NCBI GenBank assembly: GCA_002633005.1
Contig: NMRA01000885.1
Span: forward strand, 6,185 to 70,184
From: Phoronis australis
Lineage: Eukaryota > Animalia > Phoronida
Length of the DNA stretch: 64,000 bases
Direction of reading: 5' to 3'
Numbering within the stretch: the first letter of the stretch is position 1; every line of letters starts with the position of its first letter. Both the position numbers and the translations under genes were made by a program. The notes under the pieces were generated by a model. That model was not told the origin of the DNA, made no database searches, and worked only from the letters and a program-made list of their open reading frames with translations. This document shows positions 28,592-59,022 of the stretch, piece after piece.

Positions 28592-31500
28592 TTAGTTACT
28601 AGATTTGAATCTGACAGGTCTTATCTTCATACTGGTTCTCTTCATAGAGTAGAGGCCTTTGTAATAGTACCAGATGACTCGTTCTCCTCCTGACTTGTGG
28701 TTACCGTGATGATACAGACCGTTCAGGTTGGAGTAATGACAAGCGTTGTACCACCACGCGCCTTTATAGTCAACAGCACAGTTTGCAAAATGGGCGTCGT
28801 TATCTCTGTCCTTGGTGGTGAAGGGTTGACCGTTTTGGTAGATTAAGGAATCACCTGGATTAGAAATATTAAGATGAATACATAATCGTGACAAGTTTTG
28901 TAGTCCTGTTGGTGATCATATTCTGTCATGAATGGGACATTATGGGAAAATTTTTGGCTGATCTGAATACCGGTGTGTCCTTTAGTGCCAATTTTAGTTT
29001 TTTACGTTGAACGTGTATCTTCGGAATTCCTTAACGGATTGTCATAAAACTTGGCAAATATGTATCCATTAGAGAGATAACGACATGTTCTCGCTTTCGA
29101 AAGGCGAATTTCGGATGTATCCAATTACCGATATGTCCCCTAGTGACAGTATTAGTTTTTCACGTTTATCTCTGTATCTTCGAAGTTCCTAAACGGATTT
29201 TCATGAAATATGGCACATAGGTGTCCATCAATGAGATGACGCTATTCTTGAGTTTTGGATAGATTCGAGGTATTTTGCGCCATCTACTTAACATTTTTTT
29301 TTCTGTTTTCAAGATTTTGTCGCCCACCCTCTATCGACCAAACCGGCCTGTGATTATGAAAATTGGCATGTATCATGTTCGTAGTGTAAAAAAACGGTTG
29401 ACGACGATTTTCCGACGGCCATTTTACTGTTTTCTAGTTTGTTTTAGGCATCTGCCCCTATATCGACGAAACAACTCTAAGGATGAAAATTAGCGTTGAT
29501 GTTTCTACTGTAAGAAGGATGCTTATGATGATTTTCGGACACTCGGACTACCGTGGTGCTTACTAGTGGCAGTGTTTTGCATATATAGCATCTGCTAAAC
29601 CCTCTGCAGGATCTTTATTAAATTTGGCAAGTGTATTTCTACGAAGTTGACACTAACAACGACAACATTTTGATGGAACCAACTACCGTGGTGCTCCCTA
29701 GTGGCAATTTTTGTTGTCAGCTGTGTCTTTGAAACTCATTGGCAGATTTTCAATAGATCTGTTTCTATTAGTAAGATGACGAAGACGCCCTCTCATTTTC
29801 GGATGGATTTGATGTATTTTGCACCACTCTGTTGCCATTTTAACAATTTTTGAGTACGTTTTTGACATCACCCTCTCAATCTACCAACCACTTGAAGAAT
29901 CATTTCTAAATTTGGAGATACTGTATGTTCCTAATAAGAACAAGTATGACATTGATTTTCGGACATGTTCAACTTATTTTCCCCTCCCCCGTCCACGGCT
30001 GTATCTCATTAGCCTTTGCAAAATGTCTTCCTGAAATTTAGCTGATTTGCTCCTAATGGAGATGGTAACTGATGACGGACAGTTTCAGACCAATCCAACT
30101 ACAGCTTTGCTCCCTACTGGAAATCTTATTTTTTACATTTGCCTCAGTCTGTAACTTCAGAGTTCCTTGATGCTTTGTCATGTACATGTAATTGGGCCAA
30201 ATTTTGTATCATGAAGACAACAGCATGTTTACTTTTGCTGATAGATTCGATATACATGTATTACGACACAAATAGAGCCATTTTTAATATTTTAGTCTGT
30301 TTTTGTCTCCTGCTTTTGTATCTGCCAAACCAAGCAGAGGATCGTTATGAAAATATTGGAAGATGTGTTCATTCTGACAAGAGCATGACTGACTTCAAAC
30401 TGGTCCAACTACTGACAGTGATGGCTTCTTTAGACACTTATTCGCATCAAAGTTTGTATCTCCTAAACCCTTGTAATATTTTTTTTTGAAATTTCGCAGT
30501 TGTATTTGCATTAGCTTGACAGCAGATGGATGGATTCAACTACTGCAGTGGTTGCAAACAGTAGCTTGTATTTATTACATTTGCCTTTGTATCTTTTGAG
30601 TTCTTTGACAGATTTCATAAAATTTGGCGAATGATTTGGAAAGACGGCGACACCTTCCCATATTTGGATGGTTTCAATATATTGTGAGCCATGTAACTGC
30701 CTTACTTGATACAAATAATCAACCCATCACTGTTTGTGGTGCATTCGTGGGCGCATTTCATTCGCCTTGCTCTATTAACCAGACAATTGTACATGTAAGG
30801 CTGATTTTGAAAATTGGCTTATATATTTTGACTGTGAAGTGGACAGATGACGATGGTGTTTGGACAGATCCAAGAACTGTGACACCTCCTAATATTTGCG
30901 TCCGTGCTTTATCTCATAAAGTCTCCGCACGATCTTTGTTAAAGTTGGCAAGGTGATAACAGATGATAACCCCTTTTGGATGGATCCGACTACTGCTGTG
31001 ACCTCTAGTGGCACTTTTATTTTTCCCATTTCTTCTTTATCTTTGGAATTCCTCGATGTATTTTCATTAAATTTGGCATATAAGTTTCTAAGCAACAATG
31101 ACACTCGTTTCCAGATGAATTACGCATGATGTACATCTTCTAGAGGCCATTCTTTTTTTTCGTTCATCTCTATATCGGCCAAACCATTCAAGAATGGTAT
31201 ATGCGTTCTTACTGGGAGGAGCATGGCTGGCAATGATTTTTGGACAATTTTGAATACTCTGTTTTTCCTTAACCTCTGCTAGATCTTTATAAAATTTGGC
31301 AAGTGCAAAATCTTCACCCATGCCGTAAAATGTCAGAAAATCATTTACACTTAAAACGATGGTCGTTTTTTCAAATATAATGATTACTTGGACTGTGAAT
31401 ATTAAAAATATAAGTAAACTGCGGGCGTCCTGGCGCTCAATGGCTTCAATGCTAGAGCTAAAATGACTGAACAAGATTTCGTTACTTTGGTAAAACAGAT

Positions 31501-57959: not shown

Positions 57960-59022
57960 TGTCTGCACAACTGAAATATCTGTCTCGTGTTTACAAGCAA
58001 ATGAATACAGACTTGAACAACCTAGACGCAACCCACAACAAACTGGAACAGGATTTTGCTAACCACACACAAAAAGCAAAGGAAACTGATGACTTCCTCA
58101 AGTCCCAACAACAAGGCTTACAAATGCAGCAGGCAATATTAATAACGGAGCTTAATGACCTTGAAAGTAAGATACTTCATGAAATTTTAATTCGATTTCA
58201 ATGCTTGGATGTCTTTTCTCATATATTATTTTGAAGTGCAGAGATGACTACATTAATGTGAAAAAACTTAGAAAATCTTACTGCCAAAAGTAGCTATTTT
58301 CTGATACTGTAGCAACCATACAATGAAAATAAGACAATGTGTTAATTACGAAGAGAATGGAAATTTAAACCTGTCCTATAAAATTTATCTCATCTGTTTC
58401 TTTAAATCATGCCATCAAATTACTGTAATCCTATAAATTCTTTAGTTAAGGACATAATTTGGCAGTCGATTGTAATTTCATAATGTCAAATAGCTGGGCT
58501 ACTTCAAAGTTAAGAAACAGTTTCTTTGTTGTTACCATGGTTGGAATGGATGGTACCAATTGTAATCAAAAATGTTTTACAAGAATGTGAGCACTTGCAG
58601 TTTGTGGAATCCAAATCCTTCAAAATCAAAACCCAGCAATTTTGTCAAGCAGTAGGAAGTCTAAATAACAATGAATCCCCATTATAATGGTCTATAACAA
58701 CTTCTCGCCTATTTACATTGGCAAGACATTTCAGTCGGCTATTTTTGCGGTCATCCTCAAATGTCACAACATTCTTAGGAGGACCACGGGTATGTCAGGT
58801 ACACTGACTTGTGGTGGTCAGTAGTGGTGAGCACATATTTCAGACTTTTCCCCAGGAGCGAGGACTAACTCAGGTACTTTGCCTTTGCCAGTCTTGCACT
58901 CTAACAAAATTAGTGTAAAATTTAGCTGATCGTGTAAATGGTCCATTGATGAAAAAATTATGTGGATCACGTTGTCCAACAACATCTGAGGTTATCTACA
59001 GCAGCTGCAGTAAATTCACTTT
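57960..59022 (+). pseudogene. Inverted fragment: 3' end of the coiled-coil stalk exon plus its downstream intron
   Basis: [44 protein letters not shown] on the plus strand matches gene A 37310-37103. The following sequence matches the reverse complement of ~36300-37100. Confidence 0.9.

Follow-up and report, generated by a model that had tools for sequence, protein, structure and literature searches.

How can neighbouring genes that begin with the same kind of secreted stalk come to carry different globular heads? The question is raised by a 64,000-nucleotide stretch of Phoronis australis DNA (contig NMRA01000885.1, positions 6,185 to 70,184; hereafter the window), intron-rich animal DNA with 39% G+C and numerous transposon remnants, where paralogous stalk and linker exons lead to exons for a fibrinogen-related domain (FReD) in a left unit and to an exon for an olfactomedin domain (OLF) in a right unit. 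A first-pass annotation had proposed that this locus diversifies recognition or agglutination proteins by swapping stalks and heads, through alternative splicing, duplication plus deletion, or both. Our results make duplication and deletion, rather than alternative splicing, the most likely source of this exon-level head replacement. At a probability of roughly 0.55, we favour the reading that a tandem duplication copied a stalk-OLF gene together with a PAN-FReD gene and that the left copy then lost its OLF and PAN exons, giving a stalk-FReD gene.

A predicted stalk-FReD gene in the left unit

The left unit consists of six exons, all of them intact together with their splice sites:

37103..38162, minus strand: left stalk exon, 353 codons, signal-like N-terminus and long predicted coiled coil, phase-1 end (hydropathy, heptads, all-helical model)
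36175..36225, minus strand: left linker exon, 51 nucleotides, phase 1-1 (splice sites, phase)
32227..32354, minus strand: left FReD exon 1, phase-1 start (Pfam Fibrinogen_C)
31876..31972, minus strand: left FReD exon 2 (splice sites)
31520..31684, minus strand: left FReD exon 3 (tblastn, splice sites)
28592..28854, minus strand: left FReD exon 4 with stop (Pfam, structure match)

Exon chains were spliced by script and their reading frames checked for internal stops. Stalk, linker and the four FReD exons give 587 residues with zero internal stops, as the annotation had anticipated for the left unit. The stalk opens with a hydrophobic N-terminus whose hydropathy peaks at 2.12 at residues 7-17, a judgement from hydropathy and not from a signal-peptide predictor. 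It then shows a heptad bias, is proline-free after residue 72, and was modelled from its single sequence as four long helices, all-helical (pLDDT 64.6, pTM 0.26); the term coiled coil is a prediction, since it rests on the heptads and on this model. Cysteines stand at positions 3, 6, 28, 161, 224 and 235 of 353, with none near the coil end. A Pfam scan of the stalk returned no family and hence no immunoglobulin (Ig) domain match, and none of 3,951 candidates was a homologue; the sole HMMER match, a weak one, was a cadherin-like repeat protein that we judged unrelated. All matches in Atlas stayed below 0.9 and were generic coiled coils, and none of the 541 matches to the stalk pattern in metagenome contigs was a homologue.

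On the head side, the left unit has a complete C-terminal fibrinogen domain, with Pfam PF00147 matches to FReD exons 1 and 4. The closest solved structures to exon 4 are FIBCD1, tenascin-R, tachylectin-5A and ficolin-2, and its DRDND and CH motifs, which we take to serve in calcium and ligand binding, align with FIBCD1. The predicted product of the left gene is a secreted coiled-coil oligomer presenting several FReD heads, which would be a multivalent angiopoietin-like lectin or ligand. Lectin activity would be a guess from the family, and the recognition or agglutination role proposed by the annotation is likewise suggested by family membership.

Tandem duplication and an olfactomedin-sized indel

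The two units are related by duplication. From the linker to FReD exon 1, eight same-strand blocks align between left and right with their order kept (chance about 2e-7; one or two of the blocks may be repeats), and two of the eight lie in low-copy DNA by contig depth. Homology runs on below both FReD genes, so that the duplicated unit measures about 16-20 kb. The duplication is old, because the aligned non-coding blocks differ at 20% of sites (597 of 2,970), with 2.6 gaps per 100 bases. The collinear blocks flank an indel of the size of the OLF segment:

33890..34173, minus strand: indel junction, with 18 bases on the left in place of the 1,847 on the right that hold the OLF exon (collinear alignment)

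On the right, the homology breaks off at 56544, shortly before the OLF acceptor, and resumes at 54696, 1 kb past the OLF stop; the corresponding left positions are 34021 and 34002, and the junction is free of nearby Ns. An AATAAA kept on the left at 33976 is aligned to the one at right 54667, the likely poly(A) signal of OLF, and no other AATAAA occurs in the 1.5 kb that follow the OLF stop. The PAN exon is absent on the left as well, where 844 unaligned bases face 3,355 on the right. With paralogous stalks and linkers leading to FReD in one unit and to OLF in the other, the duplication-plus-deletion route of the annotation is supported.

A further 1.25 kb (34733-35990) is found only in the left intron and is probably an insertion after duplication.

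Constraint on the paralogous exons

Left and right FReDs share 161 of 216 residues over the four exons, with a dN/dS of 0.32 (bootstrap 0.20-0.49, 216 codons); ratios were computed pairwise between left and right by the Nei-Gojobori method, which may inflate dS. By exon, dN/dS is 0.11 in exons 1-2 and 0.44 in exons 3-4, where amino-acid change concentrates and which presumably encode the ligand-binding end. The stalk fragment kept in the right unit gives 0.26 (0.09-0.69, 65 codons). The left FReD exons hold zero frameshifts, against about 5.7 expected had they been neutral since the duplication (P about 0.003, a rough value). As far as paired codons can tell, this shows paralogous exons under purifying selection and points to long constraint.

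The right unit as two probable genes

The right unit contains the following exons, of which the OLF and PAN exons are those missing on the left:

57770..57835, minus strand: right linker exon, 66 nucleotides, phase 1-1 (splice sites, phase)
55673..56448, minus strand: olfactomedin domain, single terminal exon, phase-1 start, with stop (Pfam, noelin match, RNA depth 3.3-4.6 on the coding strand)
49961..50312, minus strand: signal-like segment and PAN domain exon, phase-1 end, an island between repeats (Pfam)
48806..48933, minus strand: right FReD exon 1, phase-1 start (Pfam)
48474..48570, minus strand: right FReD exon 2 (splice sites; spliced reads, mostly of a paralogue)
48184..48348, minus strand: right FReD exon 3 (Pfam, splice sites, reads)
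46018..46286, minus strand: right FReD exon 4 with stop (Pfam)

The annotated domains hold up as Pfam matches above the gathering score: the OLF exon matches PF02191 with 169 bits (cut-off 23.9, E 1.7e-49), PAN_1 is matched at E 1.4e-5, and Fibrinogen_C was found in all five FReD exons scanned of the eight that exist. The best solved match of the OLF exon is noelin (E 1.4e-35), with a cysteine at position 2 aligned to a noelin cysteine just before the first OLF strand. The PAN and right FReD exons can be spliced in frame, as had been claimed, into 336 residues with zero internal stops. The right unit reads best as two genes, because the OLF exon has its own stop and likely poly(A) signal and the PAN exon its own signal-like segment.

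Except for the right-hand stalk, the exons named by the annotation stand at their coordinates with canonical GT-AG ends, and its phases stand as well: the left stalk, both linkers and the PAN exon end in phase 1, while the OLF exon (56448) and the first exons of the two FReDs (48933 and 32354) start in it. Phase-1 boundaries are usual for extracellular modules, and for this reason phase compatibility is weak evidence of splicing.

The start codon of the PAN exon is uncertain, with in-frame ATGs at 50477, 50312, 50303 and 50282. Within 49896-50510 the PAN frame extends without a stop for a further 66 codons ahead of the ATG at 50312, and acceptor-like sites in phase 1 stand at 50488 and 50452; the product may be longer or membrane-anchored, or the exon may serve as an internal one. 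Neither longer PAN relatives nor close homologues of the exon were found among 55 candidates; the search for longer OLF relatives yielded one of 740 candidates, an apparently prokaryotic protein that was uninformative. Between the PAN and OLF exons, 50549-54200 is a multi-copy repeat cluster with very high DNA contig depth and many RNA reads.

An inverted remnant of the right stalk

The annotation had placed a right stalk exon at the head of the unit in transcription order, and here it has to be revised: what remains is a remnant on the plus strand, within a rearranged end of the unit.

57962..58166, plus strand: 3' piece of the right stalk exon in inverted orientation, with an open frame and a GT donor at 58167 (tblastn)
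57962..59022, no strand assigned: inverted segment with the stalk 3' end and most of the stalk intron, its high end adjoining a multi-copy repeat edge at 59021 (blastn, contig depth)
60073..63322, minus strand: region sharing homology with the 3' flanking DNA of both FReD units (alignment)

By tblastn, the right stalk is present only at 57962-58171 of the plus strand, where it shares 80% identity with the final 70 of the 389 codons in the left frame. About 65-70 codons of the 3' end, without any cysteine, thus lie on the opposite strand as part of an inverted segment of 1.06 kb; in blastn, 36469-37307 pairs with 58849-57962 in reversed orientation. The 5' part is absent: nhmmer detected no second copy of the left stalk's 5' 1,000 bases in the window (only a match at E 3.9), and the minus strand of 57836-64000 has no open frame of more than 50 codons ending at a phase-1 donor. 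Because the stalk is inverted and 5'-truncated, the right unit cannot make stalk-OLF or stalk-FReD in this sequence, and the OLF gene here seems to have lost its promoter together with the 5' stalk. The inversion ends carry no clear terminal inverted repeat. Beyond the inversion come about 1 kb of repeats and then 60073-63322, which probably forms the end of a third unit of the tandem array lying just past base 64000; the duplicated 3' flanks hold no conserved open frame of at least 35 codons.

This rearrangement is probably real. That it is an assembly error hiding an intact stalk-OLF gene, a side question compatible with any reading of the left unit, seems to us somewhat unlikely, and we keep some weight on it because none of the DNA contig pieces listed (8 of 8,515) bridges the breakpoint at 57960, where one listed contig ends. 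The fragment's frame and donor are intact and sense-strand RNA lies on it, which also suit an error. There is, however, no N at either breakpoint, and the inverted piece covers nearly the whole intron with the third unit's tail about 1 kb on, which looks like inversion plus deletion.

RNA evidence across the right unit

Reads of three RNA runs from a single study (18-19% of each run) and of one DNA run were mapped to a target of 45900-61500 at 92% likeness. The mapping is dominated by repeat reads, and the joints listed, 15 of 282, come mostly from repeats; among these 15, the joins 57770->56448, 57770->48933 and 49961->48933 are all missing, the expected linker-OLF join included, a result that neither supports nor excludes them. 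The OLF exon is covered on its coding strand at depths of 4.4, 4.6 and 3.3 in the three runs. In the bin of the stalk fragment, sense-strand depth is 1.56, 2.3 and 0.64, compared with 1.72, 1.81 and 1.29 predicted from OLF for one transcript. Since these values are near the one-transcript prediction, they suggest an intact stalk-OLF allele or paralogue, likely expressed in other individuals.

Right FReD exons 1-3 are covered mainly by the reads of a relative: position 48902 shows another letter in 219/219, 186/186 and 136/139 reads. These reads leave FReD exon 1 at 48933 into one upstream sequence (194 and 150 reads, agreement 1), which reads QLDDLRKML in frame, is absent from the window and is neither PAN nor linker. 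Because they continue into sequence outside the window, first exons vary in this FReD subfamily and a third upstream exon lies elsewhere. Coverage of the right FReD gene itself is weak: the bin of its exon 4 has depths of 0.09, 0 and 1.72, and at 48332, 20 of 23 reads in one run match the right locus.

Direction of the change and competing explanations

Under the favoured reading, the ancestral neighbours would have been a myocilin-like stalk-linker-OLF gene and a PAN-FReD gene, tandem-duplicated as one unit. In the left copy, intron-to-intron deletions would have taken out the OLF stop and the second first exon, bringing the left linker donor into phase with the FReD acceptor. The break in the right stalk-OLF gene of this sequence, by the inversion and the loss of its 5' end, is a separate matter. 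Since every module boundary is in phase 1, an intron-to-intron deletion re-pairs an N-terminal module with the next head and causes no frameshift. The human MYOC coding exons measure 604, 126 and 782 bp in the cited part of PMC6264709, and the plan here is 1,060 (left stalk), 66 and 776 (right linker and OLF), with phases 1, 1-1, 1; stalk-OLF is favoured as the older pairing because this three-exon plan matches that of MYOC. The AATAAA relic at left 33976 was also counted for loss on the left.

Several points weigh against this reading. Loss on the left, although likely, is favoured on gene plan and parsimony, and angiopoietin-type genes also place a large coiled-coil exon before their FReD exons. 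The PAN exon is repeat-flanked on both sides and could be a right-hand gain, and the OLF segment is bounded on both sides by a short GACT(A) repeat, which suits a microhomology deletion and an insertion target duplication alike. The stalk-FReD splice, 36175->32354, is likely but predicted from the exons, and its intron contains an N at 32464; the other two Ns of the window are contig joins. The kept AATAAA could end the left transcript before the FReD. The deletion is undatable from dN/dS, because the ratio is pairwise and the constraint may predate the deletion. Finally, identity between the left stalk and the right fragment rises to 92% in windows no longer than 50 bases, and some of the sense reads there may be cross-mapped.

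The same indel can be read in the opposite direction, with stalk-linker-FReD as the ancestral gene and a right copy that gained the OLF and PAN exons by insertion and so split into two genes. The indel pattern is symmetric, the PAN exon is an island between repeats, the GACT(A) repeat could be a target duplication, and coiled coil plus FReD is a common architecture in the cited part of PMC8878817. Such a history nevertheless requires two exon gains, each with working splice signals, and leaves the MYOC-like exon plan and the left AATAAA relic against it, so that we regard it as distinctly unlikely. Doubtful, too, is the idea that left stalk and FReD belong to separate transcripts, because the stalk transcript terminates at the retained poly(A) signal, because the stalk is a recent pseudogene, or because the N hides a separate first exon of the FReD. 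The stalk-FReD junction is a prediction from the sequence, the left intron holds five AATAAA, and two of the three Ns are contig joins; set against this is the integrity of all six left exons and their splice sites. Another signal-bearing first exon was looked for in the left intron and none was apparent. At 32464 a tandem neighbour aligns straight through (59/74 columns before, 38/53 after), gap-free at the N, whereas the two contig joins show overlaps of 93% and 98% identity, of which there is no equivalent at 32464; given this missing overlap duplicate and the gap-free alignment, a first exon hidden there is unlikely but possible, and a large hidden gap was judged unlikely.

Alternative splicing, by which one right locus would yield stalk-OLF, stalk-FReD and PAN-FReD, fares worst and is in our judgement very improbable. 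All its joins are in frame, an intact stalk allele may exist, and noelin makes four isoforms through promoter use and splicing in the cited part of PMC4206993. The right stalk is, however, inverted and truncated here, leaving the proposed route no usable stalk beside an OLF exon and a PAN exon that each have the marks of a separate gene; a stalk-FReD join would have to span 8.8 kb and pass over a terminal exon with its poly(A) signal as well as a second first exon; and right FReD exon 4 is nearly read-free in two of three RNA runs, compared with OLF coverage in all three. Beyond the favoured duplication and deletion on the left, a broader possibility, which we raise only tentatively, is an actively reshuffling array, in which phase-1 tandem units would be cut repeatedly by deletions and inversions that re-pair at least three N-terminal modules (stalk, PAN and the third, coiled-coil-like exon) with FReD or OLF heads. 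Such rearrangements would segregate as structural alleles and give individuals different head-stalk repertoires.

Relation to known families

The closest parallel is the gastropod VIgL lectins (FREP, CREP and GREP), in which, according to the cited part of PMC5433772, an N-terminal module is shared and heads are swapped across paralogues; with QREP, described together with coiled-coil FReDs in the cited part of PMC8878817, one kind of N-terminal module bears fibrinogen, C-type lectin, galectin or C1q heads. The head replacement at this locus works like the VIgL swap, but the gene is not a FREP. Here the shared module is a helical stalk, Ig-free by Pfam and by its all-helical model, and lacks the one or two immunoglobulin superfamily (IgSF) domains of FREP; one head is an olfactomedin, not a known lectin; and the head-swapping indel can be read in adjacent duplicates. 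In coiled-coil FReDs, both angiopoietin-like and lophotrochozoan single-domain ones, the same order of signal peptide, coiled coil and C-terminal FReD is described (PMC8878817 and PMC7588048, in the parts cited), but the left stalk is a paralogue of the stalk of an OLF gene, with homologues undetected in the databases searched.

With myocilin, noelin and amassin the right unit shares the plan of signal, long coiled coil and OLF, given for amassin and myocilin in the cited part of PMC2173732, and the three coding exons phased as in MYOC. It differs in that the right stalk is broken, so that a same-strand signal and coiled coil upstream of OLF are lacking here, though an intact allele would probably have them. 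The left stalk also has no cysteine near the coil end (the last is at 235 of 353), unlike the five proteins compared in that part of PMC2173732. PAN/apple domains are joined to fibrinogen in Biomphalaria FREP1 and in some Lottia FReDs, according to the cited part of PMC7588048; the Ig domain is absent here, and the PAN exon had no close homologue among its 55 candidates. A swap between OLF and FReD heads was not found in the open full-text literature, which omits most subscription papers.

In invertebrate lectin families, head swapping is usually deduced from the architecture of the proteins, whereas here the breakpoints can be read in adjacent duplicates. The locus would offer a concrete route from an olfactomedin gene to an angiopoietin-like FReD, by tandem duplication and then intron-to-intron deletion between phase-1 modules, and it forms a bridge between two large secreted-oligomer families, which are normally handled apart. 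It also provides a natural pair of proteins with near-identical stalks, on which the contribution of the head could be tested. The broken OLF copy would in addition be a loss-of-function polymorphism if it is an allele.

Other features of the window

A further linker near 25900 was considered and rejected. The window holds three Ns, one of them (32464) inside the left stalk-FReD intron; the other two each interrupt a near-identical tandem pair (93-98%), at 22725-23815 and 61916-63225, which are probably unmerged contig overlaps and not true duplications. At 13610-18368 lies an LTR (long terminal repeat) retrotransposon with gag, RT/RNase H and integrase in three separate minus-strand frames, a recent insertion because its two 180-base LTRs are identical. 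Decayed retroelement fragments occupy 2585-3022, the only one with a Pfam match (RVT_1), and 18345-19034 and 41339-41804, which we take to be such fragments by resemblance.

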